Origin: Dissostichus eleginoides
Taxonomy: Eukaryota
Direction of reading: 5' to 3'
DNA: 64,000 nt
Assembly (NCBI GenBank): GCA_031216635.1
Contig: CM062274.1
Coordinates: 26,484,913-26,548,912, forward strand
Part shown: positions 10,449 through 54,959 of the stretch, in pieces
Numbering within the stretch: position 1 is the first letter of the stretch
Layout of the letters: each line of letters opens with the position of its first letter
The notes under the pieces: generated by a model
Databases searched by the model: none
Seen by the model: only the letters and a program-made list of their open reading frames with translations
Told to the model about the DNA's origin: nothing
Position numbers and translations under genes: made by a program

Positions 10449-12596
10449 ATGGAGGAAATCAATGACGATGTGGAAACTGTAAAACCCCTAACCCCAAGAT
10501 CAGCAACAATAAAAGAAGGTAAGTGTCAGTCAGACGGAGTGAGCTGTGGATTATGGATTTATTATACTCACTGGTCTTCTCTGTGTTCAGGTCCCAGGAG
10601 CTCAGAGAGATTTCCCCGAGCGTCTGTTCTCGGTTTTGGGCTGCTGAGTGTTTTCCTGCTGGCTGTCTTCATCGGACTCAAAGTCTACTGTTAGTCTGTT
10701 TTATAAGTTAATGTCATTTTGAATTTTCAAAAGCACTTTCTGCCCTCTGCCTTTTACTTAAGTTTGTATGAATGTATGAGGTATTTTCTGTTTAGAAAAC
10801 GTGTCTCTTGATCATTTCAGGCCATTACTTAGAAGGTGTTGCAGCTGCAGATCTCTCCGCTGTCAAAGCAAACCTGACTGAGAGTCTCCAGGCCAGAGAT
10901 CAGCAGCTGTCCTCCATGACTGAAGAGAGAGACAGACTGAAGGCCAACCTCACTGAAAAGACCAGAGAGGTGGACAGGCTCCAGAGTTTGATGGGTAAGG
11001 GTGAGTGCTTCATGTGGGGGGGTTTGCATAGGGCTCGGTATGTGTATGTAAGATATCAATTTCCATAATATTTTTTACAAAATACCTCGATATTGATAGT
11101 CTAAGGCTGACTATTGATGCTTTCATAAAATAGTAACACAATGACACTTTTCATTAATGATAATCAAGAAAGAGTTTTTAATGACTTAGTTGTGAGTGAT
11201 TTAATTCATAGTTTGTTTTATTTTTCTTCACCCACCATATTTATATTTCTCTGTAAACTATGCTTATGGCCAGTTTCCTTGTCTAAATTACTTTTAATAT
11301 AAGCAATAGGAAGAAGAACTTACAGGTAGTTTGTTCCAGATATTTGCAGCATAATAATAAAAAAGGATAACAAGGTTTCAAACCAATTTAGAACTGTTGC
11401 CGAAAGTCAGACCCAGTTTTCCAGTCGGTCTAGAAACTAACACCGAGATGTTGCCACTGTCTGTGTTTAAGTGGATGTCATTGAAGACTTTAACAAGATC
11501 AGTCTCAGTCTGTGGTGCCTGACTAGATCACATCGAAACAGTTATTTAAATCCCAAAAAAACAGAAGTAGTTGTTCTGCAATGAAATTTGTGATCTCTTT
11601 TGATCCCTCTAAAAATGCTTAATAAATATGTTTTTTCATTTTTATTACAAAAGTGACATATAATGCACTCAAGAGTTCCATATTTAAGCAGTTAAAGCAG
11701 TAAATCAACAAGATCTTACAACTTTTACAGAGACAACGTGTCCTGAAGGATGGAGGAAGTTTGGTAGTTCCTGTTATCTCCTCTCTACTGAGAAAGCTTC
11801 CTGGGAACAAAGCAGAGACAACTGCACAGCCAGAGGAGCAGATCTGGTGATCATAGACAGTTATGAAGAACAGGTAATGTGTGCTGCTCTAACACTTGTG
11901 ATTGTATAACTCCCTGCTTTTATCAATCAATAATGTTTTTATTGTACATATACTAGCAAATGTGTCTATCAGCTATAATGATTACGTTACAACAATGGTG
12001 TTAATTACATATTTCTGAGCTAGTAAAAAGGGAAAAGTTATCTGAATGTTGATGTCCATCCCAGTAAACTGCATTTTTAATATGTGAACAGGAATTCATC
12101 CCCAGCATGATCAAGGAAGAAACTTGGATTGGTTTGAGTGACAGAGAAGAGGAGGGGACCTGGAAATGGGTGGATGGATCTCCACTGACCCTGAATCTGA
12201 CGTAAGGCTTTACTTTGGTTTAAATACAGACGCTGGTTTATGTTGTGACCTTTCTAAATGTTTCACATGTTTCTGTAATGGGAGTTAACACAACACACAG
12301 GATGCATTTAAACGTAGGATGTCTGCCCCTTTCACCAGAAGATTCATTTGGGTATTAAGAAAAGAACATGGCTGTATTACTTATAGTTATTTGTATTTGA
12401 TGTCCAATCTTTTAGTTAATCTTGTTTTCCTGTAATACCTGTTAGGTTTTGGATAGAAGGAGAGCCTAATAATGGAGGAGGGCGTCCAGAGTGGGGTGAA
12501 GAGGACTGTGCACTGATCTATTTTTTTTACATCAAAACGTGGAACGACCTGTCCTGTGAGGACGATCTGCATTCGATCTGTGAGAAAGAAGCTTAA
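10449..12596 (+). CDS. Type-II C-type lectin, CD209/DC-SIGN-like (CLEC4-like), gene 1: the only fully intact copy (six exons, EPN mannose-type CRD)
   Basis: Exons are 10449-10518 ([24 protein letters not shown]), 10591-10689 (TM: [24 protein letters not shown]), 10821-11000 (neck: [51 protein letters not shown]), 11731-11873 ([45 protein letters not shown]), 12092-12201 ([37 protein letters not shown]) and 12446-12596 ([49 protein letters not shown]). All junctions are GT/AG and the phases are consistent. Confidence 0.85.
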
Positions 12597-16844: not shown

Positions 16845-18992
16845 ATGGAGGAAATCTATGTCAATGTTGACGATATCAAACCCCTAAGCTCAAGATCATC
16901 TGCAAAACAAGAAGGTAAGAGTATCAGACCGAGTGCACTGTGGATTTTGGATTTATTAAACTCCCTGGTTTCTCTGTGTTCAGGTCCCAGGAGACTTCTC
17001 AGAGCGTCTGTTCTCGGTCTGGGGCTGCTGGGTGTTTTCCTGCTGGCTGGACTCATCGGCCTCGCTGTCCACTGTGAGTCTTTCTTTTAATACGTTTAAT
17101 AATGTCATTTTGAACGTGTGATTTTCAAGAGCAATATTCTGCTCTGAAAGATGCACATTTGACCAAAACCTCTATCGTTTTTCTACTTTTCTCCTAGGTC
17201 CAAAATAGGAAAACGTTCATTTTGGTTTGTCAGTATGATTGCATCAGGTAATTTAAAAAGACATCTATTTTCATTTCAGCTGCAGATCTCTCCGCTGTCA
17301 AAGCAGACTTGACTGAGCGTCTCCAGGCCAGAGATCAGCTGATCAACCAGCTGTATGTCAACCTCACTGAAAAGACCAGAGAGGTGGATTGTTTGAGTGA
17401 GTGCTTCATGTGGGGGTTTGCATAGGGCTCGGTATGTGTATGTAAGATATCAATTATCATAATATTTTGTACAAAATACCTCAATATTGATTATCTAAGG
17501 CTGACTATTGATCCTTTCATAAAATAGTTACACAATGAAACTTTTCATTAATGATAATTAAGAATTATTTTTTAATGACTTAGTTGTGAGTGATTTAATT
17601 TATAGTTTGTTTTATTTTTCTTCAGCCACCATATTTATATTTCTCTGTAAACTATGCTTATGGCCAGTTTCCTTGTCTAAATTACTTTTAATATAAGCAA
17701 TAGGAAGAAGAACTTAGAGGTAGTTTGTTCCAGATAATTGCTGCATAATAATAATAATAAAAAAGGATAACAAGGTTTCAAACCAATTTAGAACTGTTGC
17801 CGAAAGTCAGACCCAGTTTTCCAGTCGGTCTAGAAACTAACACCGAGATGTTGCCACTGTCTGTGTTTAAGTGGATGTCATTGAAGACTTTAACAAGATC
17901 AGTCTCAGTGCTGTGGTGCCTGACTAGATCACATCGAAACAGTTATTTAAATCCCAAAAAAAGAGAAGTAGTTGTTCTGCAATGAAATGTGTGATCTCTT
18001 TTGATCCCTCTAAAAATGCTTAATAAATATGTTTTTTCATTATTATTACAAAAATGACATATAATGCACTCAAGAGTTCCATATTCCAGCAGTTAAAGCA
18101 GTAAATCAACAAGATCTTAACACTTTTACAGCAACAATGTGTCCTGAAGGATGGAGGAAGTTTGGTTGTTCCTGTTATCTCCTCTCTACTGAGAAAGCTT
18201 CTTGGGAACAAAGCAGAGACAACTGCAGAGCCAGAGGAGCAGATCTGGTGATCGTAGACAGTGATGAAGAACAGGTAATGTGTGCTGCTCTAACACTTGT
18301 GATTGTATAACTCCTTGCTTTTATCAATCAATAATGTTTGTATTGTACATATACTAGCAAATGTGTCTATCAGCTATAATGATTACGTCACAACAATGGT
18401 GTTGATTACATATTTCTGAGCTAGTAAAAAGGGAAAAGTTATCTGAATGTTGATGTCCATCCTAGTAAACTGCATTTTTAATATGTGAACAGGAATTCAT
18501 CTCTAGCATGAAGATGAAGGAAGACACTTGGATTGGTTTGAGTGACAGAGAAGAGGAGGGGACCTGGAAATGGGTGGATGGATCTCCACTGACTCTGACG
18601 TAAGGCTTTACTTTGGTTTTAAATACAGACGCTGGTTTATGTTGTGACCTTTCTAAATGTTTCACATGTTTCTGTAATGGGAGTTAACACAACACACAGG
18701 ATGCATTTAAACGTAGGATGTCTGCCCCTTTCACCAGAAGATTCATTTGGGTATTAAGAAAAGAACATGGCTGTATTACTTATAGTTATTTGTATTTGAT
18801 GTCCAATCTTTTAGTTAATCTTCTTTTCCTGTAATACCTGTTAGGTTTTGGATAGAAGGAGAGCCTAATAATGGAGGAGGGGATCCACAGGTGGGTGAAG
18901 AGGACTGTGCACTCATCAAACCTTACACCAAGAGGTGGAACGACCGGTTCTGTAAGACCGATATGCATTGGATCTGTGAGAAAGAAGCTTAA
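16845..18992 (+). CDS. CD209-like C-type lectin, gene 2 (type A, EPN); the neck exon carries an in-frame 18-nt deletion
   Basis: Exons are 16845-16914 ([24 protein letters not shown]), 16984-17073 (TM), 17280-17396 ([38 protein letters not shown], lacking the RLQSLMDKG end), 18132-18274 ([45 protein letters not shown]), 18493-18599 ([36 protein letters not shown]) and 18845-18992 ([48 protein letters not shown]). Confidence 0.75.
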
Positions 18993-25732: not shown

Positions 25733-28674
25733 ATGGAGGAATTCTATGTCAATGTTGACGATATCAAACCCCTTAGCTCAAGATCATCTGAAAAACAAGA
25801 AGGTAAGAGTATCAGACAGAGTGCACTGTGGATTTTGGATTTATTAAACTCCCTGGTTTTCTCTGTGTTCAGGTCTCAGGAGACTTTCTCAGAGCGTCTG
25901 TTCTCGGTCTGGGGCTGCTGGGTGTTTTCCTGCTGGCTGGACTCATCGGCCTCGCTGTCCACTGTGAGTCTTTCTTTTAATACGTTTAATAATGTCATTT
26001 TGAACGTGTGATTTTCTAGAGCAATATTCTGCTCTGAAAGATGCACATTTGACCAAAATCTCTATCGTTTTTCTACTTTTCTCCTAGGGCCAAATTGGGA
26101 AAACATTTACTTTGGTTTGTGTCAGTATGATTGCATCAGGTAATTTAAGAAACATCTATTTTCATTCCAGACCATAACTCAGTAGGTGTTGCAGCTGAGC
26201 ATCTCCAGGCCAGTGATCAGCTGATCAACCAGCTGAAGGCCAACCTCACTGAGCGTCTCCAGGCCAGAGATCAGCTGATCAACCAGCTGAAGGCCAACCT
26301 CACCGAAAAGACCAGAGAGGTGGACAGGCTTCAGTGTTTGATGGACAAGGGTGAGTGCTTCATGTGGGGTTTTTGCATAGGGCTCGGTATGTGTAAGATA
26401 TCAATTATCATAATATGTTTTACAAAATACCTCGATATTGATAGTCTAAGGCTGACTATTGATCCGTTCATAAAATAGTTACAGAATGACACTTTTCATT
26501 AATGATAATTAAGAATTAGTTTTTAATGACTAAGTTGTGAGTGATTTAATTTATAGTTTGTTTTATTTTTCTTCACCCACCATATTTATATTTCTCTGTA
26601 AACTATGCTTATGGCCAGTTTCCTTGTTTAAATTACTTTTAATATAAGCAATAGGAAGAAGAACTTAGAGGTAGTTTGTTCCAGATATTTGCAGCATAAT
26701 AATAAAAAAGGATAACAAGGTTTCAATCCAATTTAGAACTGTTGCCGAAAGTCAGACCCAGTTTTCCAGTCGGTCTAGAAACTAACACCGAGATGTTGCC
26801 ACTGTCTGTGTTTAAGTGGAAGTCATTGAAGACTTTAGCAAGATCAGTCTCAGTGCTGTGGTGCCTGACTAGATCACATCGAAACAGTTATTTAAACCCC
26901 AAAAAAAAGAAGTAGTTGTTCTGCAATGAAATGTGTGATCTCTTTTGATCCCTCTAAAAATGCTTAATGAATATGTTTTTTCATTTTTATTACAAAAGTG
27001 ACATATAATGCACTCAAGAGTTCCATATTCCAGCAGTTAAAGCAGTAAATCAACAAGATCTTAACACTTTTACAGAGAAAACGTGTCCTGCAGGATGGAG
27101 GAAGTTTGGTTGTTCCTGTTATCTCCTCTCTACTGAGAAAGCTTCTTGGGAACAAAGCAGAGACAACTGCAGAGCCAGAGGAGCAGATCTGGTGATCGTA
27201 GACAGTTATGAAGAACAGGTAATGTGTGCTGCTCTAACACTTGTGATTGTATAACCCCCTGCTTTTATCAATCAATAATGTTTTTATTGTACATATAGTA
27301 GCACATTTGCGTATAAGCTATAATGATTATGTTACAACAATGGTGTTAATTACATATTTCTGAGCTAATAAAAAGGGAATAGTATGCTGAATGTTGATGT
27401 CCATCCCTGTAAACTGCATTTGTGAACAGGAATTCATCACCAGCATGATCAAGGAACAAACTTGGATTGGTTTGAATGACATAAACCAAGAAGGGACCTG
27501 GAAATGGGTCGATGGAGCTCCACTGACTCTGAAGTAAGGCATACAGAACATATTCATATATTTTGGAGTAGCTGCATCCTACTGATGTATATCGGTGTTT
27601 TTTTTATGACTGTCCAAACATTTATTAATTATTATCAATTTCAGAATTAACTAACATTTTAACATTCATTGCAAATAAAGCTAATAATCTAAAGACATGC
27701 ATACACACACATCTAGAGATGTGCAAAGAGGATAACATTTTTGGATATTGGGTAAAAAATGAATTCAATTTTAATTTTAATGTGCCATTATTCAATGTCC
27801 CTTTTTGCATAATACACTAGAAACCCAGGCAGAAAAAATAACAATTCAAAGCAGTTAGTTCACTTTAAAGACATAACAATTAAGATTCTGCCACAAATAA
27901 GCTGAAAGGCACAGTTATAGGTGTTAAAGTGTGTATGTATTTTAACGAGAGGTGTGATGAAAAAGGTGGAAAGAATAGTTTAGGAATCTTGGTTCGAGTT
28001 GAGAAGCTGCTGATCATAACCATAACCATTGAAAGTTCAAATTATTTCAACAACTCTTTTCATAAAGATCTCTTCTACATTTTGTGGTATCAAAAGAGAA
28101 TAATTAAACCAGTGCCACTTTGAGAATAGAATGAGAAATGGTAAAGCGTCTTTCTTTTCTTGAAACAGCAATTCGCCCTAAAATAGAGGAAAGGCGATGA
28201 AAGTAAATGAGAAGATTTCGCAAGAAAAAGGGTTGAGCTGAGGGTGTGAATGTGTGGTAGGCTATAAGCTGTGGGTTTTTAAATAGGGAAATACATAAAG
28301 CAGCTTTTATGTGTTGGCCACATGTGGCAGCTGTTTTTTAACCTAAATTGGCATGGCCTTTAGTGTGTTAATGTGTCCGAATGTTGTCTTTCGCTATGTG
28401 TTTTAATAGGTAAATGCTATATATGAAATGTATATGAAAAGCAATCTCAAGCAGAACGCATTACATCTATCACATTTGGGGGGGAACCTGAAAATGAACT
28501 TTCCTGCTATTACCTCCTAGGTACTGGGGATCGACCCCTGATAATGGTGGTGGAGATCCAGTGTGGGGTGAAGAGGACTGTGCAAGTCTTGTACCTGGAA
28601 GGGAAACCAGAACAAACTGGAATGATCTGCGGTGTGCTACCCGTCTGCAATGGATCTGTGAAAAAATGGCTTAA
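25733..28674 (+). pseudogene. CD209-like C-type lectin, gene 3 (type B, TPD terminal exon); 1-nt insertion frameshift in the TM exon
   Basis: Exons are 25733-25802 ([24 protein letters not shown]), 25873-25963, 26171-26350 (neck, 2 repeats: [54 protein letters not shown]), 27076-27218, 27430-27533 ([34 protein letters not shown]) and 28521-28674 (YWGSTPDNGGGDPVWGEEDCASLVPGRETRTNWNDLRCATRLQWICEKMA*). Exon 2 is 91 nt against 90 in the paralogs: gtctcaggagactttctc versus gtcccaggagacttctc. This shifts the TM frame unless it is a sequencing error. Confidence 0.7.
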
Positions 28675-31149: not shown

Positions 31150-32100
31150 CCCTCACCAGCAACCGTATAGCATCATTGTATGCAATTTTAGTTTTTGCAT
31201 GCTGCTAGCCTTGTAGTTACTCCACAGGTGAGCCGTGTACAATGGTGTACAGAAAGCTTTAAAAAGTGATACCTTGACATCTACAGAGCACTTGTGAAAT
31301 GTCCGCATTAATATGTTTGCCTGGGCATACAGTTTGCAGCGTTGTCTATGGATGTCTTTGTCATCTGTGAGATCATCAGAGATATAATGACCAAGGTACT
31401 TAATCTCACTGCACACAAGAAGAATGTTGCTACTGAGAATAAAATTAGGAAATACAGCCTTTTTATCCTCTTTACTTCGCACAATCATGATGCTACTCTT
31501 CTTGGCATTATACTTAATATTAAAATCAATGCCATACTGGGAACAAATCCGAACAGAAGCTGTTGTAAGCCTGCACTGTACGGGGAAAAGATGATTAAAT
31601 CATCTGCGTACATAAGGTGGTTGACAACAGTATCACCGATGACACTGCCAGTTTTACACAAGTTCAGTTTCCTAGACGGATCATCAATGTACAGATTAAA
31701 CAACAAAGGAGATAAAATCCCACCTTGCTTGACCCCATTACCAACATAAACATTTTCAGACACAGTATTGCCCCACTTCACCTGCATAGTCTGATGTGCA
31801 TACTAAAAGCCTAAGATCCTTATTATGTACTTGGGTACCCCTCTTTGGCACATTTTTTCAAATGATTTGAAATGATTCAGTCTATCAAATGCCCTAGAAG
31901 CATCAATAAAATACAGAAACATGGTGGAATTTTGGCTTCTATATTTTGCTATAATGTCTTTTAAAGCAAAAATACACACATCTGTGCCGTGTTTTCTTTT
32001 AAAACCAAACTGGTTGTCAGCTGTGGTAATATACCTTTCCAGCTTATCCAACATAATTTTCTCCAGCACTTTGGAGAGAATGCTAGCTAAAGCAATAGGT
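31150..32100 (-). mobile_element. Non-LTR (LINE) reverse-transcriptase fragment
   Basis: Minus ORFs give GVKQGGILSPLLFNLYIDD...LMYADDLIIFS (YADD box) and, in the copy at 42863-43920, NYRPIALASILSKVLEKIM...QFGFKRKHST...FIDASRAFDRLNH. These are RT domains 1-5. Confidence 0.8.
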
Positions 32101-32544
32101 CTGTAATTATCAATGCCATAATTTTCCCAGCTTTATCCTTGATGACTGGCACAAGTAGCACAGATAACATGGAAACTGGTAAGACACCAGGAAACCAGTA
32201 AGACACAGAGCAAGAAGAGGAGCAAGCTTAAGACTGGCATCTTTTAAGTGTTCAGCTGAGATGACATATGACAAGCATGATCATTTCTGACGTGGAGCTA
32301 ATCTAAACTAAACATTGAATACTGCTTTATATTCCTCCATCTTGTGACTGTGTAACTCCCTCTCTTGTATATCAGCATGTGAAGGACACTGTTCAGGAAC
32401 TAATTGTACCAAATGCTCTGTATGTGATGACTACTTCCATTCTTGCAAGGATAATAAATACATGTATCCTGATTATTGAAGCTCAAGCCGGTGAAGAGTG
32501 ATATTTTCCTAACAATTAGCATGAAAACACCTACCACAAACTCA

Positions 32545-32715
32545 GAGTGAGTGTTGGGGGTGCGGCAGAACCCGTGCACGCTGTCGTATCCCTCCGGAAC
32601 CTCGGTCAGGTTGAGGTCTTTCTTATGGACGTCAGTGCACTGACCCAACGCCACATCACACACCAACAGCAGCCGAGAGCCGTCTGTCTCGCTGGGCTTG
32701 GAGTATTTCAAACTG
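32545..32715 (-). pseudogene. Isolated PARP-catalytic-domain exon fragment (mono/poly-ADP-ribosyltransferase family)
   Basis: The minus strand reads ...KYSKPSETDGSRLLLVCDVALGQCTDVHKKDLNLTEVPEGYDSVHGFCRTPNTHSEF, bounded by an AG acceptor and a GT donor. It matches the PARP signature ...SKSxNY...LLLxEVALG.... No neighbouring PARP exons were found. A copy lies at 44259-44429. Confidence 0.5.
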
Positions 32716-34195
32716 GTGATGTGGATAAGGAGAGTGGAAAACAGTCTCACTACAGATGAGTGTGTTGTTGCCATCTGGTTCCCCATAGGATGAAATGAGG
32801 ATCAAAGACTCATTAGAAAAGCACCTTTTAGATCAGGGGTGTCCAAACTACGTCCCGGGGGCCAAATGCGGCGCGAGGATTTTGACTATGGGTGAATTCT
32901 GGGGGGGCTTGTGTGGTGATTGACATTATTCACCCACGGAACTATGGGTTTGGGTATTGTTCCGCACGGACATTTGAGTTATACGGACTTCCTGTTTACC
33001 CCGGTCTTGCTTCCCGGGCTTGAAGCTGTTGACATGTTGTTCAGATGCTAAATAAAAGTCTAGCTTGTACCTTTGATACCCCGCCTCCGACTCCCGTCTC
33101 TCGGCACTACAATACTTAAGAAATTGCTGGATATCACAGTCCTTATACTGTATCTTATCAGTTTGATTGAGTATTATTGTGTAGGTCCTTTTTATTTTAC
33201 TGTTACTTTGATGTGTTTCTAATGAGTCAGTCAAATTAATTTATTTTCATATGCCATATTCATATGTATCACACACGTAAGGGTAAGACACAAACCTATT
33301 TAACAAATGCAATGCAATGGATAAGCTTAATTTTCACTGAAGTCACAGATAACGTCATATCTAATATTTAAACAAATCATTTCCTTGTCACTAAAGCATT
33401 GACTACGCTATTCATCGTCCTTAAATGCAGGCTCTAAGTTACATGTTCCGTTCTACAGCCACAATAAGGCTGTTTCTCAAGTTGATGATAATAAAATGAA
33501 AAGAGGCATTGGTAATATTATTAAAAACAACAATGTTTGGGTCGTTCTTCGGATAGGCGGTTAGCTGCAATAAATAACTCCAGTTCAACAAACCATATTA
33601 CAATATCTAAGGGAGCGTTATTTCTGGACCATCTTGAAATGTGACGTTCATATTTTAAAGATACACACATTTTATTGTGAGGTTGATTTAAAATACACTA
33701 AGCCTCTCTTCAACAATACGTTGACGTTAGCTAGTCTATTTTATGCCATAGTAGAGCATAGCGAATTTAAATGAACCTTAACAATGCATACAGTAACCTA
33801 ACTAGCAAACTAACTATCTAACGTACAAGGAAGACCTTATTTTACCAACCTCACACAGAAGCCTTTTGGTATACAGTAGCATCCCACTTAATTTTTACAC
33901 TTCTCTATTACGTTTAACTTGGATGCTACGCATAGCATCGTTAGCACAGATGGAGCTACGATTGCTCAAATGCTAACCCAACTCTAAACATTCATTAACA
34001 TTAGCTAAATAAAAACACCAGTAACATAACATAAAGAACGCAGGGTTGACTTACCGAAGACACTGCATTCATGGACGGTCTGTTTTAACTGCAGATAAAT
34101 CCTATATTTGCATGACGAATAGTCCACCAGGAGCCAACACAACAAACACGGCCGAGTTCAAGTAGTGTTCTCCGCATGAGCTGAGCCCCTGTAGC

Positions 34196-34240
34196 ATCAC
34201 GGAGCTAATGGAGCTAACGGAGCTAACGGAGCTAGCAGTG
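34196..34240. repeat. Minisatellite (ggagctaa[ct])n, 3.5 copies here
   Basis: ggagctaatggagctaacggagctaacggagctagc. The duplicate at 45908-45955 carries one more unit. Confidence 0.8.
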
Positions 34241-35407
34241 AGACAGAGGAGCTAGGAGCAGCAGTCCCGTTGTCATGAAGGGGGAATCTAACTATATACA
34301 GAATATGCTTTTTTGGATCCAGGCTAGAAACATGTTCATTTTCTGATGTTAAGTTGGACATTTTAACATAGGGTCTACGGGAATTGCTCCCATCTGCACA
34401 GTTTGCAGCATTGGGCTTCTCACCGCACGGTCCCGGAGTTCGCCGCTTGGCTCTGATAGGCCAGAAGTCGGTTTGATTGCATTCGGGCTCGATTGCTTAT
34501 CCTGTCTGGGTAGCCCGGATGATACTGCATCGACATTTTTGACATCGAATTTTAAACACCGAAATTGTCCATTCAAATTGTTTTCACTTGAATTTTTGGG
34601 ATCTGAATTTGACCATTCGAATTGTTTTAACTTGAATTGTTACATTTTTATTTCACATGGGTAAATTCGGAGCAAAAAAATTCAGATACATGATTTTCAA
34701 AGTAATTATTTTCAATGCTATAAATTCGGTGTCTGATAAAATTCAAATACTTCTGTCTCTTGTTTGCTTCCATAGTTGCACGGCCAGATACGGCTCGAGA
34801 AGCTGACTCAGATGAATGAGGCGAGTAAACACAGCTGACAGCCGCCGTGAAACTCGAGCGATTATTCAATCGCGTCTGTCGTGAACGCACCATTATTACA
34901 AGTATTATATAATTACAAAATAAAATTGCCACTCTCAGTACAGCGCCACTTTCCGAACTGGAAATGCACGCAAATACAATCTTTTATATTATTATTATTA
35001 TTAATAATATATATATAAATAAAGACATATATAAATAAAGACATATTGTATTTTAGTTACACCCGCTATTGATTCATTTTGTCAACATTGGACCTTGAAA
35101 CCGTCCACATAGCTATAGTAAAATAATATAATATAAAACATTAAGCCTCTTTGATTTAATAATCGGAGCTGAAACCTCTCTGCCATCTCATATAATACTA
35201 ACTTCCTTATTTATCTTTGAATAATAATAACATAAAAATAAAGACGACTATACTACGGTCCTTCGATCCTGATATTAGCGCCTGCAGGCAGGCTCCATGG
35301 GCCTGTCAGCTCTGGACAGCGCAAAATGCGTATATGAAGTGCTACGTCATGAACGCAATAAATCATACCCTCGTGGGGGCGCGCTCATGTGATTGGCTTA
35401 GAATGGG

Positions 35408-36580: not shown

Positions 36581-39500
36581 ATGGAGGAAATATATGCCAA
36601 TGTTGACGATGTCATATCCCTAAGCTCAAGATCATCAACAATACAAGAAGGTAAGAGTGTCAGTTAGAGTGCACTGTGGATTTTGGATTTACTGTATTAC
36701 TCCCTGGTCTTCTCTGTGTTCAGGTCCCAGGAGATTTCCCCCAGCGTCTGTTCTCGGTCTGGGGCTGCTGGGTGTTTTCCTGCTGGCTGGACTCATCGGC
36801 CTCGCTGTCCACTGTGAGTCTTTCTTTTAATACGTTTAATAATGTCATTTTGAACGTGTGATTTTCAAGAGTAATATTCTGCTCTGAAAGATGCACATTT
36901 GACCAAAACATCTATAATTTTTCTACTTTTCTCCTCGGGCCAAGGTAGGAAAACATTGACTTTGGTTTGTGTCAGTATGATTGCATCAGGTAATTTAAGA
37001 AACATCTATTTTCATTTCAGACCATAATTCAGTAGGTGTTGCAGCTGAGCGTCTCCAGGCCAGAGATCAGCTGATCAACCACCTCAATGTAAACCTCACT
37101 GAGCGTCTCCAGGCCAGAGATCAGCTGATCAACCAGCTGAAGGCCAACCTCACTGAGCGTCTCCAGGCCAGAGATCAGCTGATCAACCAGCTGAAGGCCA
37201 ACCTCACTGAGCGTCTCCAGGCCAGAGATCAGCTGATCAACCAGCTGAATGTAAACCTCACTGAGCGTCTCCAGGCCAGAGATCAGCTGATCAACCAGCT
37301 GAAGGCCAACCTCACCGAAAAGACCAGAGAGGTGGACAGGCTTCAGAGTTTGATGGACAAGGGTGAGTGCTTCATGTGGGGTTTTTGCATAGGGCTCGGT
37401 ATGTGTAAGATATCAATTATCATAATATGTTTTACAAAATACCTCGATATTGATAGTCTAAGGCTGACTATTGATCCGTTCATAAAATAGTTACAGAATG
37501 ACACTTTTCATTAATGATAATTAAGAATTAGTTTTTAATGACTAAGTTGTGAGTGATTTAATTTATAGTTTGTTTTATTTTTCTTCACCCACCATATTTA
37601 TATTTCTCTGTAAACTATGCTTAAGGCCAGTTTCCTTGTCTAAATTACTTTTAATATAAGCAATAGGAAGAAGAACTTAGAGGTAGTTTGTTCCAGATAT
37701 TTGCAGCATAATAATAAAAAAGGATAACAAGGTTTCAATCCAATTTAGAACTGTTGCCGAAAGTCAGACCCAGTTTTCCAGTCGGTCTAGAAACTAACAC
37801 CGAGATGTTGCCACTGTCTGTGTTTAAGTGGATGTCATTGAAGACTTTAGCAAGATCAGTCTCAGTGCTGTGGTGCCTGACTAGATCACATCGAAACAGT
37901 TATTTAAATCCCAAAAAAAGAAGTAGTTGCTCTGCAATGAAATTTGTGATCTCTTTTGATCCCTCTAAAAATGCTTAATGAATATGTTTTTTCATTTTTA
38001 TTACAAAAGTGACATATAATGCACTCAAGAGTTCCATATTCCAGCAGTTAAAGCAGTAAATCAACAAGATCTTAACACTTTTACAGAGAAAACGTGTCCT
38101 GCAGGATGGAGGAAGTTTGGTTGTTCCTGTTATCTCCTCTCTACTGAGAAAGCTTCTTGGGAACAAAGCAGAGACAACTGCAGAGCCAGAGGAGCAGATC
38201 TGGTGATCGTAGACAGTTATGAAGAACAGGTAATGTGTGCTGCTTTAACACTTGTGATTGTATAACTCCCTGCTTTTATCAATCAATAATGTTTTTATTG
38301 TACATATAGTAGCACATTTGCGTATAAGCTATAATGATTATGTTACAACAATGGTGTTAATTACATATTTCTGAGCTAATAAAAAGGGAATAGTATGCTG
38401 AATGTTGATGTCCATCCCTGTAAACTGCATTTGTGAACAGGAATTCATCACCAGCATGATCAAGGAACAAACTTGGATTGGTTTGAATGACACAAACCAA
38501 GAAGGGACCTGGAAATGGGTCGATGGAGCTCCACTGACTCTGAAGTAAGGCATACAGAACATATTCATATATTTTGGAGTAGCTGCATCCTACTGATGTA
38601 TATCGGTGTTTTTTTTATGACTGTCCAAACATTTATTAATTATTATCAATTTCAGAATTAACTAACATTTTAACATTCATTGCAAATGAAGCTAATAATC
38701 TAAAGACATGCATACACACACATCTAGAGATGTGCAAAGAGGATAACATTTTTGGATATTGGGTAAAAAATGAATTCAATTTTAATTTTAATGTGCCATT
38801 ATTCAATGTCCCTTTTTGCATAATACACTAGAAACCCAGGTAGAAAAAATAACAATTCAAAGCAGTTAGTTAACTTTAAAGACATAACAATTAAGATACT
38901 GCCACAAATAAGCTGAAAGGCACAGTTATAGGTGTTAAAGTGTGTATGTATTTTAACGAGAGGTGTGATGAAAAAGGTGGAAAGAATAGTTTAGTAATCT
39001 TGGTTCGAGTTGAGAAGCTGCTGATCATAACCATAACCATTGAAAGTTCAAATTATTTCAACAACTCTTTTCATAAAGATCTCTTCTACATTTTGTGGTA
39101 TCAAAAGAGAATAATTAAACCAGTGCCACTTTGAGAATAGAATGAGAAATGGTAAAGCGTCTTTCTTTTCTTGAAACAGCAATTCGCCCTAAAATAGAGG
39201 AAAGGCGATGAAAGTAAATGAGAAGATTTCGCAAGAAAAAGGGTTGAGCTGAGGGTGTGAATGTGTGGTAGGCTATAAGCGGTGGGTTTTTAAATAGGGA
39301 AATACATAAAGCAGCTTTTATGTGTTGGCCACATGTGGCAGCTGTTTTTTAACCTAAATTGGCATGGCCTTTAGTGTGTTAATGTGTCCGAATGTTGTCT
39401 TTCGCTATGTGTTTTAATAGGTAAATGCTATATATGAAATGTATATGAAAAGCAATCTAAAGCAGAACGCATTACATCTATCACATTTGGGGGGACCTGA

Positions 39501-39672
39501 AAATGAACTTTCCTATTACCTGCTAGGTACTGGGGATCGACCCTTGATAATGGTGGTCTAACGTTGGGTGAAGAGGACTGTGCAAGTCTTGTATGGAAGG
39601 GAAACCAGAACAAACTGGAATGATCTGCGGTGTGCTACCCGTCTGCAATGGATCTGTGAAAAAATGGCTTAA
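36581..39672 (+). pseudogene. CD209-like C-type lectin, gene 4 (type B) with an expanded neck (five 18-aa repeats) and a 2-nt deletion frameshift in the terminal CRD exon
   Basis: Exons are 36581-36650 (MEEIYANVDDVISLSSRSSTIQEG; an out-of-frame uATG lies 7 nt upstream), 36724-36813 (TM: [30 protein letters not shown]), 37021-37362 (neck, 342 nt: [18 protein letters not shown] x5), 38087-38229, 38441-38544 and 39527-39672. Exon 6 reads YWGSTLDNGGLTLGEEDCASLVWKGNQNKLE*: tacctgg has become tatgg relative to gene 3, which gives a premature stop before WND/Cys. Confidence 0.7.
37040..37320 (+). repeat. Coding 54-bp VNTR (neck-repeat minisatellite) inside lectin exon 3
   Basis: aacctcactgagcgtctccaggccagagatcagctgatcaaccagctgaaggcc is repeated 5 times here. 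Gene 3 (26171-26350) and gene 6 (54780-54959) have 2 copies; gene 2 has 1; genes 1 and 5 have 1-2 variant copies. Each unit carries an N-glycosylation sequon NLT. Confidence 0.9.
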
Positions 39673-42655: not shown

Positions 42656-45600
42656 CACTGTCTGTAGAGGCTGCTGCGCCAATGTCTCCAAATCATGGAA
42701 GAGAACCGAGTAGAACTCTTCAAAGGGTTAATTAAAATCGAGATAACATGATTGTCTGACTCCTCTAGGCGACACATGAATTTGTACATTACATTTCTTA
42801 AAAGGGCTTGACAGGTACCCCCACGTTAACAAACAGCTGGCTGGCACTGTGCCATCCTGGTACCCTCACCAGCAACCGTATAGCATCATTGTATGCAATT
42901 TTAGTTTTTGCATGCTGCTAGCCTTGTAGTTACTCCACAGGTGAGCCGTGTACAATGGTGTACAGAAAGCTTTAAAAAGTGATACCTTGACATCTACAGA
43001 GCACTTGTGAAATGTCCGCATTAATATGTTTGCCTGGGCATACAGTTTGCAGCGTTGTCTATGGATGTCTTTGTCATCTGTGAGATCATCAGAGATATAA
43101 TGACCAAGGTACTTAATCTCACTGCACACAAGAAGAATGTTGCTACTGAGAATAAAATTAGGAAATACAGCCTTTTTATCCTCTTTACTTCGCACAATCA
43201 TGATGCTACTCTTCTTGGCATTATACTTAATATTAAAATCAATGCCATACTGGGAACAAATCCGAACAGAAGCTGTTGTAAGCCTGCACTGTACGGGGAA
43301 AAGATGATTAAATCATCTGCGTACATAAGGTGGTTGACAACAGTATCACCGATGACACTGCCAGTTTTACACAAGTTCAGTTTCCTAGACGGATCATCAA
43401 TGTACAGATTAAACAACAAAGGAGATCAAATCCCACCTTGCTTGACCCCATTACCAACATAAACATTTTCAGACACAGTATTGCCCCACTTCACCTGCAT
43501 AGTCTGATGTGCATACTAAAAGCCTAAGATCCTTATTATGTACTTGGGTACCCCTCTTTGGCACATTTTTTCAAATGATTTGAAATGATTCAGTCTATCA
43601 AATGCCCTAGAAGCATCAATAAAATACAGAAACATGGTGGAATTTTGGCTTCTATATTTTGCTATAATGTCTTTTAAAGCAAAAATACACATATCTGTGC
43701 TGTGTTTTCTTTTAAAACCAAACTGGTTGTCAGCTGTGGTAATATACCTTTCCAGCTTATCCAACATAATTTTCTCCAGCACTTTGGAGAGAATGCTAGC
43801 TAAAGCAATAGGTCTGTAATTATCAATGCCATTAATTTTCCCAGCTTTATCCTTGATGACTGGCACAAGTAGCACAGATAACATGGAAACTGGTAAGACA
43901 CCAGGAAACCAGTAAGACACAGAGCAAGAAGAGGAGCAAGCTTAAGACTGGCATCTTTTAAGTGTTCAGCTGAGATGACATATGACAAGCATGATCATTT
44001 CTGACGTGGAGCTAATCTAAACTAAACATTGAATACTGCTTTATATTCCTCCATCTTGTGACTGTGTAACTCCCTCTCTTGTATATCAGCATGTGAAGGA
44101 CACTGTTCAGGAACTAATTGTACCAAATGCTCTGTATGTGATGACTACTTCCATTCTTGCAAGGATAATAAATACATGTATCCTGATTATTGAAGCTCAA
44201 GCCGGTGAAGAGTGATATTTTCCTAACAATTAGCATGAAAACACCTACCACAAACTCAGAGTGAGTGTTGGGGGTGCGGCAGAACCCGTGCACGCTGTCG
44301 TATCCCTCCGGAACCTCGGTCAGGTTGAGGTCTTTCTTATGGACGTCAGTGCACTGACCCAACGCCACATCACACACCAACAGCAGCCGAGAGCCGTCTG
44401 TCTCGCTGGGCTTGGAGTATTTCAAACTGGTGATGTGGATAAGGAGAGTGGAAAACAGTCTCACTACAGATGAGTGTGTTGTTGCCATCTGGTTCCCCAT
44501 AGGATGAAATGAGGATCAAAGACTCATTAGAAAAGCACCTTTTAGATCAGGGGTGTCCAAACTACGTCCCGGGGGCCAAATGCGGCGCGAGGATTTTGAC
44601 TATGGGTGAATTCTGGGGGGGCTTGTGTGGTGATTGACATTATTCACCCACGGAACTATGGGTTTGGGTATTGTTCCGCACGGACATTTGAGTTATACGG
44701 ACTTCCTGTTTACCCCGGTCTTGCTTCCCGGGCTTGAAGCTGTTGACATGTTGTTCAGATGCTAAATAAAAGTCTAGCTTGTACCTTTGATACCCCGCCT
44801 CCGACTCCCGTCTCTCGGCACTACAATACTTAAGAAATTGCTGGATATCACAGTCCTTATACTGTATCTTATCAGTTTGATTGAGTATTATTGTGTAGGT
44901 CCTTTTTATTTTACTGTTACTTTGGATGTGTTTCTAATGAGTCAGTCAAATTAATTTATTTTCATATGCCATATTCATATGTATCACACACGTAAGGGTA
45001 AGACACAAACCTATTTAACAAATGCAATGCAATGGATAAGCTTAATTTTCACTGAAGTCACAGATAACGTCATATCTAATATTTAAACAAATCATTTCCT
45101 TGTCACTAAAGCATTGACTACGCTATTCATCGTCCTTAAATGCAGGCTCTAAGTTACATGTTCCGTTCTACAGCCACAATAAGGCTGTTTCTCAAGTGTG
45201 ATGATAATAAAATGAAAAGAGGCATTGGTAATATTATTAAAAACAACAATGTTTGGGTCGTTCTTCGGATAGGCGGTTAGCTGCAATAAATAACTCCAGT
45301 TCAACAAACCATATTACAATATCTAAGGGAGCGTTATTTCTGGACCATCTTGAAATGTGACGTTCATATTTTAAAGATACACACATTTTATTGTGAGGTT
45401 GATTTAAAATACACTAAGCCTCTCTTCAACAATACGTTGACGTTAGCTAGTCTATTTTATGCCATAGTAGAGCATAGCGAATTTAAATGAACCTTAACAA
45501 TGCATACAGTAACCTAACTAGCAAACTAACTATCTAACGTACAAGGAAGACCTTATTTTACCAACCTCACACAGAAGCCTTTTGGTATACAGTAGCATCC

Positions 45601-48312
45601 CACTTAATTTTTACACTTCTCTATTACGTTTAACTTGGATGCTACGCATAGCATCGTTAGCACAGATGGAGCTACGATTGCTCAAATGCTAACCCAACTC
45701 TAAACATTCATTAACATTAGCTAAATAAAAACACCAGTAACATAACATAAAGAACGCAGGGTTGACTTACCGAAGACACTGCATTCATGGACGGTCTGTT
45801 TTAACTGCAGATAAATCCTATATTTGCATGACGAATAGTCCACCAGGAGCCAACACAACAAACACGGCCGAGTTCAAGTAGTGTTCTCCGCATGAGCTGA
45901 GCCCCTGTAGCATCACGGAGCTAATGGAGCTAACGGAGCTAACGGAGCTAGCAGTGAGACAGAGGAGCTAGGAGCAGCAGTCCCGTTGTCATGAAGGGGG
46001 AATCTAACTATATACAGAATATGCTTTTTTGGATCCAGGCTAGAAACATGTTCATTTTCTGATGTTAAGTTGGACATTTTAACATAGGGTCTACGGGAAT
46101 TGCTCCCATCTGCATCCATCGCCTACAGTTTGCAGCATTGGGCTTCTCACCGCACATTCCCGGAGTTCGCCGCTTGGCTCTGATAGGCCAGAAGTCGGTT
46201 TGATTGCATTCGGGCTCGATTGCTTATCCTGTCTGGGTAGCCCGGTTGATACTGCATCGACATTTTTGACATCGAATTTTAAACACCGAAATTGTCCATT
46301 CAAATTGTTTTCACTTGAATTTTTGGGATCTGAATTTGACCATTCGAATTGTTTTCACTTGAATTGTTACATTTTTATTTCACATGGGTAAATTCGGAGC
46401 AAAAAAAATCAGATACATGATTTTCAAAGTAATTATTTTCAATGCTATAAATTCGGTGTCTGATAAAATTCAAATACTTCTGTCTCTTGTTTGCTTCCAT
46501 AGTTGCACGGCGAGATACGGCTCGAGAAGCTGACTCAGATGAATGAGGCGAGTAAACACAGCTGACAGCCGCCGTCAAACTTGAGCGATTATTCAATCGC
46601 GTCTGTCGTGAACGCACCATTATTACAAGTATTATATAATTACAAAATAAAATTGCCACTCTCAGTACAGCGCCACTTTCCGAACAGGAAATGCACGCAA
46701 ATACAATCTTTTATATTATTATTATTATTAATAATATATATAAATAAAGACATATTGTATTTTAGTTATACCCGCTATTGATTCATTTAGTCAACATTGG
46801 ACCTTGAAACTGTCCACATAGCTATAGTGAAATAATATAATAGAAAACATTAAGCCTCTTTGATTTAATAATCGGAGCTGAAACCTCTCTGCAATCTCAT
46901 ATAATACTAACTTCCTTATTTATCTTTGAATAATAATAACATAAAAATAAAGACGACTACACTACGGTCCTTCGGTCCTGATATTAGTGCCTGCAGGCAG
47001 GCTCCATGGGCCTGTCAGCTCTGGACAGCGCAAAATGCGTATATGAAGTGCTACGTCATGAACGCAATAAATCATACCCTCGTGGGGGCGAGCTCATGTG
47101 ATTGGCTTAGAATGGGGAGGCTGTGGCGCAGTGGGCTAGTGCGTTGGTGTTCGCGCCAGGGGGTCACAGGTTCAAACCCCACTGCACTCAGCATGTCATT
47201 GTGTCCCTGGGCAAGACACTTCACCCCAAATTGCTCCTGTGGGGATTGTCCACAGTATTGAGTATGTAAGTCGCTTTGGATAAAAGCGTCTAACAAGTAA
47301 CATGTAATGTAATGGAGGAGACATCTGATTGGCTATAGATAGAACAAAGTACAGTATACGAATCGGTTCACCGTCAGGGGAGTCTCAAAAAACCCACACA
47401 CGAATGCACAGCGATCCATGCACAGAAAGCGGGTTGTGTTTGCAGGTGCAGCGGTTTTAAACGGAAAACAAATATTTGTGGATCAAAAATACATATGTAA
47501 AACTTTTATTTACATGTAGCCTATATGAGGAAACGGAACACATGCGACACAACTCTCTGAACAACACAACCCTCTGATGCGTGTGTTGGTAGCTTGGCAC
47601 GCAACTTCCCTGGAACCGTTGCTGCTTCCAGTGTTTCCTCCTGAAGTCTTTGATCACTACCCAGTCACCGGGCTTGAAGTGGTGTTGTGGCGCATCAGCT
47701 GGCGTCGGCAGTATGGCTTTCACCTGAGAGTGGATAGCTGAGAGGGAGACTGAAAGACTTATTCAGTAGTTCAACAAAAGGTAACTTAAATTGTCTCAAC
47801 TTTCAGAAACTAACATTACATTAACAGAATAATATTCTTTAAATCTGTGCCATTTCGTCTTGTGCCTTGTGCCATCAAGAGAGCCAGCTTTTCACGGCAA
47901 AACATATTTGTAGCTGCTTTCACAATGATGACATGCTATTCTCTTTTTATTAACCAGCAAAATAGATCTTTACAGGATCAGAATATTTTGAATATTATTA
48001 ATCTTTATGGCTTTGTAAGATTATATGTCTCTATTTAACACAATGGACATGATTATCACACTTGTTTCAGTCTTAAATCTGTATTGTCACTGTGCTTTTT
48101 AATATTGTCACATCAATAAAGTTAGTATTTCCTGATCTTCTTCTTTTTTTTTTATATATAAAATGATGTGTGACTTCCCCAAATGATGTGTGACTTCCTA
48201 AAAAAAAGGTAAAGCATTTAGAAATTCAAACCAGCAACCACACTTTCCCCGGTCACATACTTCAGGATACTTGCTGCAGAGCTGACCTTCTAGGAAAGAG
48301 TTGGCATGAGCA

Positions 48313-50577
48313 ATGGAGAAAATCTATGACAATGCTGTTGATGTCATATCCCTAAGCTCAAGATCATCTGCAAAACAAGAAGGTAAGAGTGTCAGTCAGA
48401 GTGCACTGTGGATTTTGGATTTACTGTATTACTCCCTGGTTTTCTCTGTGTTCAGGTCCCAGGAGATTTCTCAGAGAGTCTGTTCTCGGTCTGGGGCTGC
48501 TGAGTGTTTTCCTGCTGTCTGGACTCATCGGCCTCGCTGTCCACTGTGAGTCCGTCTTTTAATATGTTTAATAATATCATTTTGTACGTGTGATTTTAAG
48601 GAGCAATATTCTGCAGGGAAAGATGCACCATTTGACCAAAACATCCATCGTTTTTCTACTTTTCTCCTAGGGCCAAAACATTAATTTTGGTTTGTGTCAG
48701 TATGATTGCATCAGGTAATTTAAGAAACATCTATTTTGATTTCAGACCATAACTCAGTAGGTGGCGCAGCTGCAGATCTCTCCGCTGTCAAAGCAAACCT
48801 GTCCTCAGTGACTGAAGAGAGAGACAACCTGACTGAGCGTCTCCAGGCCAGAGATCAGCTGCTGTCCTCAGTGACTGAAGAGAGAGACAGTCTGAAGGCC
48901 AACCTCACTGAGCGTCTCCAGGCCAGAGATCAGCTGATCAACCAGCTGAAGGCCAACCTCACCGAAAAGACCAGAGAGGTGGACAGGCTTCAGAGTTTGA
49001 TGGACAAGGGTGAGTGCTTCATGTGGGGTTTTGCATCGGGCTCGGTATGTGTAAGATATCAATTATCATAATATGTTTTACAAAATACCTCGATATTGAT
49101 AGTCTAAGGCTGACTATTGATCCGTTCATAAAATAGTTACAGAATGACACTTTTCATTAATGATAATTAAGAATTAGTTTTTAATGACTAAGTTGTGAGT
49201 GATTTAATTTATAGTTTGTTTTATTTTTCTTCACCCACCATATTTATATTTCTCTGTAAACTATGCTTATGGCCATTTTCCTTGTCTAAATTACTTTTAA
49301 TATAAGCAATAGGAAGAAGAACTTAGAGGTAGTTTGTTCCAGATATTTGCAGCATAATAATAAAAAAGGATAACAAGGTTTCAAACCAATTTAGAACTGT
49401 TGCCGAAAGTCAGACCCAGTTTTCCAGTCGGTCTAGAAACTAACACCGAGATGTTGCCACTGTCTGTGTTTAAGTGGATGTCATTGAATACTTTAACAAG
49501 ATCAGTCTCAGTGCTGTGGTGCCTGACTAGATCACATCGAAACAGTTATTTAAATCCCAAAAAAACAGAAGTAGTTGTTCTGCAATGAAATGTGTGATCT
49601 CTTTTGATCCCTCTAAAAATGCTTAATAAATATGTTTTTTCATTATTCTTACAAAAGTGACATATAATGCACTCAAGAGTTCCATATTCCAGCAGTTAAA
49701 GCAGTAAATCAACAAGATCTTAACACTTTTACAGAGAAAACGTGTCCTGCAGGATGGAGGAAGTTTGGTAGTTCCTGTTATCTCCTCTCTACTGAGAAAG
49801 CTTCTTGGGAACAAAGCAGAGACAACTGCAGAGCCAGAGGAGCAGATCTGGTGATCGTAGACAGTAAGAAGAACAGGTAATGTGTGCTGCTCTAACACTT
49901 GTGATTGTATAACTCCCTGCTTTTATCAATCAATAATGTTTTTATTGTACATATACTAGCAAATGTGTCTATCAGCTATAATGATTACGTTACAACAATG
50001 GTGTTAATTACATATTTCTGAGCTAGTAAAAAGGGAAAAGTTATCTGAATGTTGATGTCCATCCCAGTAAACTGCATTTTTAATATGTGAACAGGAATTC
50101 ATCTCTAGCATGAAGATGAAGGAACACACTTGGATTGGTTTGAGTGACAGAGAAGAGGAGGGGACCTGGAAATGGGTGGATGGATCTCCACTGACCCTGA
50201 CTCTGACGTAAGGCTTTACTTTGGTTTAAATACAGACGCTGGTTTATGTTGTGACCTTTCTAAATGTTTCACATGTTTCTGTAATGGGAGTTAACACAAC
50301 ACACAGGATGCATTTAAACGTAGGGTGTCTGCCCCTTTCACCAGAAGATTCATTTGGGTATTAAGAAAAGAACATGGCTGTATTACTTATAGTTATTTGT
50401 ATTTGATGTCCAATCTTTTAGTTATCTTGTTTTCCTGTAATACCTGTTAGGTTTTGGAACGGAGGAGAGCCTAACAATATTGACGAAGAGGACTGTGCAG
50501 AATTGTATCCTTACACCAATGGGTGGAACGACCAGTCCTGTCGGGACGATCTGCATTCGATCTGTGAGAAAGATTAA
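48313..50577 (+). pseudogene. CD209-like C-type lectin, gene 5 (type A, EPN) with a 1-nt deletion frameshift in exon 4
   Basis: Exons are 48313-48382 ([24 protein letters not shown]; an uATG lies upstream), 48456-48545 (TM), 48746-49009 (neck: [79 protein letters not shown]), 49735-49876 (142 nt, against 143 in the paralogs: gacagtaagaagaacag versus gacagttatgaagaacag), 50095-50207 ([38 protein letters not shown]) and 50451-50577 ([41 protein letters not shown]). Confidence 0.7.
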
Positions 50578-54344: not shown

Positions 54345-54959
54345 ATGGAGGAAATCTATGTCAATGTTGACGTTGTCAAAACCCTAAGCTCAAGATCATC
54401 TGAAAAACAAGAAGGTAAGAGTATCAGACCGAGTGAACTGTGGATTTTGGATTTATTAAACTTCCTGGTTTTCTGTGTTCAGGTCCCAGGAGACTTCTCA
54501 GAGCGTCTGTTCTCGGTCTGGGGCTGCTGAGTGTTTTCCTGCTGGCTGGACTCATCGGCCTCGCTGTCCACTGTGAGTCTTTCTTTTAATACGTTTAATA
54601 ATGTCAATTTGAACGTGTGATTTTCTAGAGCAATATTCTGCTCTGAAAGATGCACATTTGACCAAAACATCTATAATTTTTCTACTTTTCTCCTAGGGCC
54701 AAATTGGGAAAACATTTACTTTGGTTTGTGTCAGTATGATTGCATCAGGTAATTTAAGAAACATCTATTTTCATTCCAGACCATAACTCAGTAGGTGTTG
54801 CAGCTGAGCGTCTCCAGGCCAGAGATCAGCTGATCAACCAGCTGAAGGCCAACCTCACTGAGCGTCTCCAGGCCAGAGATCAGCTGATCAACCAGCTGAA
54901 GGCCAACCTCACCGAAAAGACCAGAGAGGTGGACAGGCTTCAGAGTTTGATGGACAAGC
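54345..54959 (+). pseudogene. Truncated CD209-like lectin gene 6: exons 1-3 only (tail, TM, 2-repeat neck); no CRD exons follow
   Basis: Exons are 54345-54414 ([24 protein letters not shown]), 54483-54572 ([30 protein letters not shown]) and 54780-54959 ([53 protein letters not shown]). Homology to the other copies ends near 55150. Confidence 0.65.

Follow-up and report, generated by a model that had tools for sequence, protein, structure and literature searches.

Variation in the length of a lectin neck is the classic case of a coding variable number tandem repeat (VNTR) in immunity and it is known essentially from primates. In human CLEC4M (L-SIGN) the neck is made up of 69-bp units, each coding for 23 amino acids, that are present in 4 to 9 copies, and the terminal units are conserved while internal units are gained or lost (PMC3261175). 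Here we describe a tandem array of 54-nt units in the neck exon of a lectin receptor gene, g4, of the toothfish Dissostichus eleginoides. The array is an independent instance in a notothenioid fish, unrelated in sequence to that of primates, and it has 5 copies in one genome and 7 in another. The stretch of DNA that was analysed, called the window throughout, is 64,000 nt long (GCA_031216635.1, contig CM062274.1, positions 26,484,913 to 26,548,912 of the forward strand), and coordinates are those of the window unless a locus is named. Judged by analogy, the system that is closest to the toothfish array in its behaviour is the neck VNTR of CLEC4M. CD23 (FCER2) and other group II lectins also have the type-II orientation and an alpha-helical coiled-coil stalk of short repeats that vary between species; the repeats of CD23 are 21 residues long (three heptads) and, although they differ between species, we know of no polymorphism in them. 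The explanation that we consider highly probable is that the array in g4 is truly a coding minisatellite, located in the one stalk exon of a type-II C-type lectin receptor, that it is polymorphic, and that its length, as we propose, alters the function of the receptor.

The window holds a tandem cluster of six plus-strand type-II C-type lectin paralogs, g1 to g6, as found by self-comparison and by tblastn with a spliced model. The gene models were built by hand with AG/GT at every junction, and the six-exon plan that is common to the paralogs consists of a cytoplasmic tail, a transmembrane segment, a neck, and three exons for the C-type lectin-like domain (CTLD). The features of g4 are the following:

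36581..36650, plus strand: exon 1, cytoplasmic tail MEEIYANVDDVISLSSRSSTIQE, from the gene model, with a GT donor
36724..36813, plus strand: exon 2, transmembrane segment (type II signal-anchor), from the AG/GT model, a hydrophobic stretch after basic residues
37021..37362, plus strand: exon 3, the neck exon, 342 nt, phase 1-1, with an AG acceptor, a GT donor, and a single open frame
37045..37314, plus strand: 54-nt tandem array within the neck exon, 5 units head-to-tail, by Tandem Repeats Finder (TRF) and unit-by-unit comparison
38087..38229, plus strand: CTLD exon 1, 100% to g3 by tblastn, Pfam Lectin_C
38441..38544, plus strand: CTLD exon 2 (WIGLND...), from the gene model and tblastn
39527..39672, plus strand: last CTLD exon, with a 6-nt and a 2-nt deletion compared to g3 and to the other assembly (DNA alignments)

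Exons 1 and 2 encode MEEIYANV...QEGPRR followed by a hydrophobic signal-anchor, as judged by inspection. In the neck exon, TRF found at 37045-37315 a period of 54, 5.0 copies, 94% matches, and a score of 486, and it found the same 54-nt consensus also as 2.0-copy arrays at 26195-26303 and 54804-54912. The five units of g4 start at 37045, 37099, 37153, 37207, and 37261 and their variants follow each other in the order A (His/Asn-Val), B, B, A' (Asn-Val), B. Units 2, 3, and 5 are identical, whereas units 1 and 4 are the AATGTAAAC (Asn-Val) variant; unit 4 has 3 differing positions (AAGGCC to AATGTA, which is Lys-Ala to Asn-Val) and unit 1 has 5, which are the same Lys-Ala to Asn-Val change and a Gln to His change. 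The consensus unit has 10 matches in the window at 3 or fewer mismatches, compared to 0 expected from 100 shuffles, and an eleventh copy, the one at 37045, has 5 mismatches. The exon is flanked by ...tttcatttcAG on its 5' side and by GTgagtg on its 3' side, and the other two sense frames of the array have a stop in every unit. As the exon is symmetric, a transcript that skipped it would keep its frame. The array of g4 thus has what defines a coding VNTR, in-frame head-to-tail 54-bp units inside one exon, and there are 5 NLT sequons in the g4 neck, one in each unit. An initial annotation of this DNA had described a frame-preserving array of five 54-nt copies in the 342-nt neck exon of g4, and this description is borne out by TRF, by the single open frame, and by the AG/GT boundaries.

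Two other properties of the array were noted. In tblastn the array is open on the antisense strand as well, which is regarded as a by-product of the repeat composition and not as a gene. The units of the Asn-Val variant (37084-37092 and 37246-37254) create AAT|GTAAAC, that is, a weak donor-like GTAA motif within the array, which gene predictors could use and thereby remove units in frame, as conceivably the spliceosome could also.

When the syntenic gene was examined in a second D. eleginoides assembly (GCA_025770515.1, contig JAOVFM010000009.1, reached via the chimeric protein model P0003), whose loci are 99-99.5% identical to the window, it was found to have 7.0 units (locus L001, 28700-29078, TRF). 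In that assembly the units follow each other as A B B A' B A' B, compared to A B B A' B for the array of the window. The two arrays therefore differ by exactly one double unit, A' B, which is 108 nt long and internal, and the first and the last units are kept. Copy-number polymorphism is thus seen directly at one locus, 5 copies versus 7 in two assemblies, as the initial annotation had predicted for this exon. The 7-copy gene has an intact open reading frame (ORF) of 336 amino acids with AG/GT at every exon. Its last exon, which was reached by bridging the 1.8-kb gap between loci L001 and L002 via a neighbouring 121-aa PARP-fragment gene (exact GT-AG model), is intact, ends in YWGSTPDNGGGDPVWGEEDCASLVDGRETRTNWNDLRCATRLQWICEKMA and a stop, and has WND and the cysteine framework.

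It could be asked if the numbers 5 and 7 were generated by collapse or expansion of the repeats in the consensus or in the polishing. Both assemblies were made in different laboratories from PacBio continuous long reads (CLR) with Illumina polishing, and the subread N50 of one of the two is 23.8 kb (PMC10910785, PMC11569150). Such reads are noisy, short reads from near-identical paralogs can mis-polish, and small indels are present in neighbouring exons of the window. However, the arrays are 270-378 nt long, far below the read length, and because the reads are far longer the arrays would be spanned by single reads. The usual errors of CLR are indels of 1-2 nt and not exact 108-nt blocks, and a 108-nt block difference in an array of less than 400 nt with unique flanks is atypical for long-read error. 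In addition, the order A B B A' B is common to both arrays, which are one clean double unit apart, and the array of g3 has 2 units in both assemblies with the same two private substitutions. That 5 and 7 are assembly artefacts is, in our view, quite improbable.

A different objection is that the 5-copy and the 7-copy genes are not alleles at all but separate paralogs in a cluster whose structure varies. The cluster has many recent segmental duplications, the lengths of the g4-g5 spacer in the two assemblies are about 1.6 kb apart, and the last CTLD exon is markedly different. There is also another g4-like gene with 4 units in both assemblies: in GCA_025770515.1 it lies upstream of g2 (L001 4142-4358, P0016), and its counterpart in the window assembly, P0011, has a g4-like N-terminus, a g5-like CTLD, and 4 units in a different variant order. 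Since the stretch of L001 that comes just after this 4-unit gene matches positions 1-1870 of the window, P0011 is probably located just upstream of the window. Against this objection, the gene order is collinear in both assemblies from g2 through g5 (g2, g3, PARP fragment, array gene, PARP fragment, g5). Over the 5.9 kb that precede and enter the array the window and GCA_025770515.1 are 99.5% identical, which is the top identity for this segment, whereas the next-best paralogous match is 97.8%, and the first five units are the same in order and in sequence. We find it highly improbable that the two genes are distinct paralogs.

The encoded stalk was examined next to the DNA. AlphaFold2, run on the translation of the g4 neck exon alone as a monomer, predicted one continuous helix over residues 2-112 with a mean predicted local distance difference test (pLDDT) score of 96. 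The hydrophobicity of the neck has a Fourier peak at 3.58 residues, compared to 18/5 or 3.6, and the power of this peak was reached by 1 of 1000 shuffles. When the unit is drawn on a 100-degree helical wheel, L2, L16, I13, L6, and L12 form one stripe with the polar R9 at its centre, and the sequon Asn, N1, is about 90 degrees off the hydrophobic stripe, at the edge. The continuous predicted helix and the hydrophobic seam, with a period within 3.5-3.67 residues, are those of a coiled-coil stalk. The unit had been called heptad-compatible, which is imprecise, since 18 amino acids is 7 + 11 and not a multiple of the heptad, with 3.6 residues per core position; what stands of this claim is the hydrophobic period and the predicted continuous helix. 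Going by its sequence, the unit would be a heptad plus a hendecad with one stutter per unit, giving a near-straight seam that is in register at any copy number. Pfam matches of the neck to coiled-coil families (HIP1, CENP-F, and PKcGMP_CC) were weak and all far below the cut-offs, and they were disregarded.

A mechanism that is consistent with these data is that the copy number changes by unequal exchange, or by slippage in replication, when the units are misaligned in a register of two. Each unit of 18 residues would form five turns of an amphipathic alpha-helix, with L2, L6, (R9), L12/I13, and L16 in the core and N1 on the flank. Because the unit is equal to five helical turns, the hydrophobic seam would stay in register upon gain or loss of a unit and the copy number could change without breaking the stalk. 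With the rise of 0.15 nm per residue of an alpha-helix, gain or loss of a unit would change the length of the stalk by about 2.7 nm, along with one predicted N-glycan. On this model the 5- and 7-unit alleles would differ by about 5.4 nm, and both would exceed the 2-unit paralogs by about 8-13 nm. The sugar-binding domain would then project differently from the membrane, and the stability of the oligomer, its reach, and its spacing would possibly be changed as well.

As in CLEC4M, the toothfish array resides in a type-II C-type lectin receptor in which a single exon of in-frame tandem units codes for the neck, and as in CLEC4M the alleles differ in the number of units, with the terminal units constant and the internal A' B gained. 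The necks of CLEC4M and DC-SIGN, of which that of DC-SIGN varies less, are alpha-helical oligomerisation stalks, and the toothfish neck is also predicted to be alpha-helical. Unlike in DC-SIGN and L-SIGN, the unit in toothfish is 54 nt or 18 aa and not 69 bp or 23 aa, and the sequences are unrelated. The toothfish and the primate arrays arose independently, that is, by convergence, because there is no sequence relationship between them. Two other differences from L-SIGN are that each toothfish unit has an NLT sequon and that the carbohydrate-recognition domain (CRD) of the g3/g4 lineage has TPD or TLD and not EPN. When the CRD was searched against PDB sequences the scores were 99 bits for Mincle, 92 for DC-SIGNR, and 90 for DC-SIGN, and thus by sequence DC-SIGN is not a closer match to it than Mincle. 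The cluster genes carry the automated names CD209 antigen-like and CLEC4E-like, and their nearest proteins are notothenioid ones that are so named. As far as the sequences tell, there is no support for placing the toothfish genes in the DC-SIGN family proper, and the CD209-like names reflect automated annotation. Hence the comparison to DC-SIGN and L-SIGN that had been drawn in the initial annotation is an analogy, reasonable as a proposal on function: the behaviour is alike, the repeats differ in length and in sequence, and the CRD scores do not single out DC-SIGN.

The neck exons of the other five paralogs are the following:

10821..11000, plus strand: g1 neck exon, 180 nt, diverged units, with a half-unit match at 10878-10904
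17280..17396, plus strand: g2 neck exon, 117 nt, 1 unit at 17313-17366, of a Tyr-Val variant
26171..26350, plus strand: g3 neck exon, 180 nt, 2 units at 26195-26302
48746..49009, plus strand: g5 neck exon, 264 nt, diverged SSVTEERD units and one perfect unit at 48908-48961
54780..54959, plus strand: g6 neck exon, 180 nt, 2 identical units at 54804-54911

These exons, as well as the 342-nt exon of g4, are all divisible by 3, and the introns are different from one paralog to the next. The copy numbers and the neck exon lengths that had been given earlier for the paralogs all agree with our gene models, and so does the 18-nt deletion in g2, which is at the 3' end of the exon; the g2 exon also lacks the first 24 nt. 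With the 4-unit gene and the 7-copy allele included, the array sizes within D. eleginoides are 1, 2, 2, 4, and 5/7. This is a natural series of 1, 2, 4, 5, and 7 units in which stalk length can be studied in relation to oligomerisation and ligand avidity.

The paralogs fall into two types by their last exon. In g1, g2, and g5 the last exon, of the EPN...WND type, is about 240 bp past CTLD exon 2, whereas that of g3 and g4 is a different one, of the TPD/TLD...WND type, at a distance of about 1 kb. The tripeptide of the sugar motif is EPN in g1, g2, and g5, TPD in g3 and in the 7-copy allele, and TLD in g4 of the window. Having TPD or TLD instead of EPN or QPD, the g3/g4 lineage may bind sugars in a non-canonical way. 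The cysteine framework and WND are intact in g1, g2, g3, and the 7-copy allele and are missing in g4 of the window as assembled. The Pfam domain Lectin_C (PF00059) was matched in g1 to g3 with E values of 1e-21 to 1e-25 over profile positions 2-107, whereas in g4 the match covers only positions 2-86 of 107, and it ends early because of a frameshift in the last exon.

Several genes in the window have such lesions, and this brings up the most serious alternative, namely that the array is subject to neutral minisatellite instability in a cluster that evolves by birth and death and that the expanded copy is a pseudogene or is becoming one. We regard this as a real possibility without holding it to be the probable one. 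In g4, the 2-nt deletion in the last exon shifts the frame, and the product ends ...EEDCASLVWKGNQNKLE; neither WND nor the last two cysteines are reached before the stop at about 39621-39623. As read from this sequence, the 5-copy allele as assembled is likely to be null or decaying and its function is doubtful. The lesion is within a patch of several substitutions and three indels compared to the other assembly, and this patch looks like a genuinely divergent haplotype. In g5 there is a 1-nt deletion in CTLD exon 1 that causes a frameshift (G in the window and GG in GCA_025770515.1, 49853-49882). The gene g6 consists of exons 1-3 only (54345-54959), and no CTLD-like exon could be detected in the 9 kb that follow up to the end of the window. 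In g3, an intact ORF of 244 amino acids is obtained only by using an exon 2 acceptor that is 8 nt downstream, and this is needed because of an extra T in exon 2 (TTT in the window and TT in GCA_025770515.1, 25865-25900). In the window as assembled the intact genes are thus g1, g2 and, under this condition, g3 only. Besides these lesions, the orphan CTLD exons with stops that lie between the genes and the TPD or TLD of the g3/g4 lineage, which has no canonical EPN or QPD, also speak for neutral instability. So does one study of the human CLEC4M neck VNTR, in which its diversity was found to fit neutral evolution and its functional effect was described as controversial (PMC3261175).

On the other side, the 7-copy allele is a complete ORF with canonical splice sites, WND, and the cysteines, and the g5 orthologue is also intact in that assembly (P0154). 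Two of the three disruptions in the window are differences in homopolymer length, which are typical of uncorrected long-read errors; the differences in g3 and g5 may be either null alleles or residual long-read consensus errors of the window assembly. Neck repeats that are compatible with a coiled coil also recur in intact genes of many percomorph species. To the explanation that we prefer, a polymorphic coding minisatellite whose length alters the receptor, the frameshift in g4 and the human data just mentioned are adverse, and there are four further points that weigh against it. The CTLD of g4 is truncated and therefore selection on the length of its neck is not demonstrated. An open frame over copies of one open unit is no independent sign of constraint. 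Going by the two coding homopolymer indels, the base-level accuracy of the window assembly in this cluster is imperfect. Finally, only two assemblies, that is, two fish, were compared, and the polymorphism was established at the level of assemblies.

In order to place the array among its relatives, about 150 retrieved homologues were compared. The percomorph proteins named CD209 antigen-like, CLEC10A-like, or CLEC4E-like belong to the same family with 40-82% identity, and they share with the toothfish paralogs the MEEIYxNV tail, the transmembrane segment, the neck motif ANLTERLQA...ERD...LTEKTKELDRLQSL, and the CTLD. The necks of the homologues have a median length of 64 aa, with the top decile above 116 aa and a maximum of about 220 aa, and among the percomorph relatives retrieved the tandem neck units are 11, 14, 18, 35, 42, 46, 49, 52, 56, and 60 aa long. 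The neck of Cyclopterus lumpus P0118 has 11-aa units in about 16-20 copies, Thunnus has 14 aa x 6 in P0143 and 49 aa x 4 in P0082, and in icefish there is 35 aa x 3 in P0007 compared to 35 aa x 2 in P0009. In most of the other percomorph cases the length of the repeat is a multiple of 7 aa or the neck exon has been duplicated as a whole (T. bernacchii P0028 for example), whereas the toothfish repeat is an intra-exon array of an 18-aa unit. Paralogs of T. bernacchii have 1 and 2 tandem copies of the toothfish 18-aa unit (two in P0012). The loci of D. mawsoni are 95-97% identical to the window. In 31 kb of its homologous cluster (L004 and L005) the units occur singly and there is no 54-nt array, and orthologues of g3 and g4 were not found in these two loci. 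An intra-exon 18-aa unit in 4, 5, and 7 copies was seen only in D. eleginoides among the sequences retrieved, and a difference between assemblies at one locus has been shown for the toothfish array only. A literature search, with partial coverage, gave no description of a neck VNTR in a teleost or of the other percomorph neck repeats, only work on human DC-SIGN and L-SIGN and papers on fish CD209 in which repeats are not mentioned.

These observations lead to a broader proposal, that percomorph CD209-like receptors have a length-modular stalk which expanded independently in one lineage and another in units that preserve the seam (11, 14, 18, 35, 42, 49, and 56 aa), and that 2, 4, 5, and 7 copies of the glycan-bearing unit segregate in toothfish and are kept by pathogen-driven selection on reach and avidity. 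We put this forward as a speculation that is rather unlikely to be right. If it were true, the selected modular stalk would be a fish-specific convergent analogue of primate L-SIGN that can be genotyped by polymerase chain reaction (PCR) in a commercially managed species. Irrespective of selection, the array provides an inexpensive marker, scored as the length of a PCR product, within a cluster of immune genes in a species that is heavily fished.

The public annotations of the two assemblies do not show this variation. In GCA_025770515.1 the protein model P0003 fuses g2 and g3 and reads the last exon of g3 out of frame (L001 10001-19887). The 7-copy gene is annotated as a 227-aa product that ends inside the last exon despite its clean 336-aa ORF (L003 4823-7956). 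P0155, which is named 'Ribonuclease Y, partial', is exactly the 113-aa product of g6 and its name is spurious, and P0053 of D. eleginoides is exactly g5, including the junction that is created by the g5 frameshift. An exact look-up of the g1 to g4 models in the protein collection found none of them, and therefore no public model equals them. Automated catalogues hide this variation because both public annotations mis-model the genes of the cluster.

Some minor observations were made on the rest of the cluster. The exon 1 tails start with MEEIYANV or MEEFYVNV, an acidic-Tyr-x-Asn-Val motif that is kept across percomorph CD209-like proteins, is lost in g1 (MEEINDDV), and is altered in g5 (MEKIYDNA); going by its residues, it may serve in signalling or sorting through the tyrosine. 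About 115-190 nt upstream of the start codons of paralogs there is a 20-nt tandem repeat, GGATGTGTGACTTCCTCAAA, which TRF found at the following positions:

16692-16731: 20-nt upstream repeat, 2.0 copies
25540-25619: 20-nt upstream repeat, 4.0 copies
48161-48198: 20-nt upstream repeat, 1.9 copies
54189-54231: 20-nt upstream repeat, 2.2 copies

The repeat upstream of g3 has 4.0 units in the window compared to 3.0 in GCA_025770515.1 (L001 16855-16914). The unit holds ACTTCCTC, which is the reverse complement of GAGGAAGT, a sequence that we take to be an ETS/PU.1-type core, and the repeat is possibly a VNTR in the promoter of a myeloid-type gene.

On the minus strand, fragments with a PARP catalytic domain (PF00644 in the public annotation) are found at about 31300-34600 and 43000-46300; they alternate with the lectin genes and have been duplicated along with them, and in the second assembly they are at L001 22934-26191 and L002 2773-4633. 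Orphan CTLD exons lie between the genes, and these are exon-2-like copies at 6195-6275, 13649-13714, and 22472-22537, copies of the last exon with in-frame stops (WNDLQ and a stop) at 15032-15211 and 23893-24042, and an intact-looking last exon of the EPN type that belongs to no gene at 20399-20524. They are relics of the birth-and-death evolution of the cluster. At the other end of the cluster the homology of g6 to the other paralogs stops at about 55165, and further downstream the minus strand has a stretch at 61345-61668 that resembles a THAP zinc finger, which suggests that the sequence downstream of g6 is transposon-derived.

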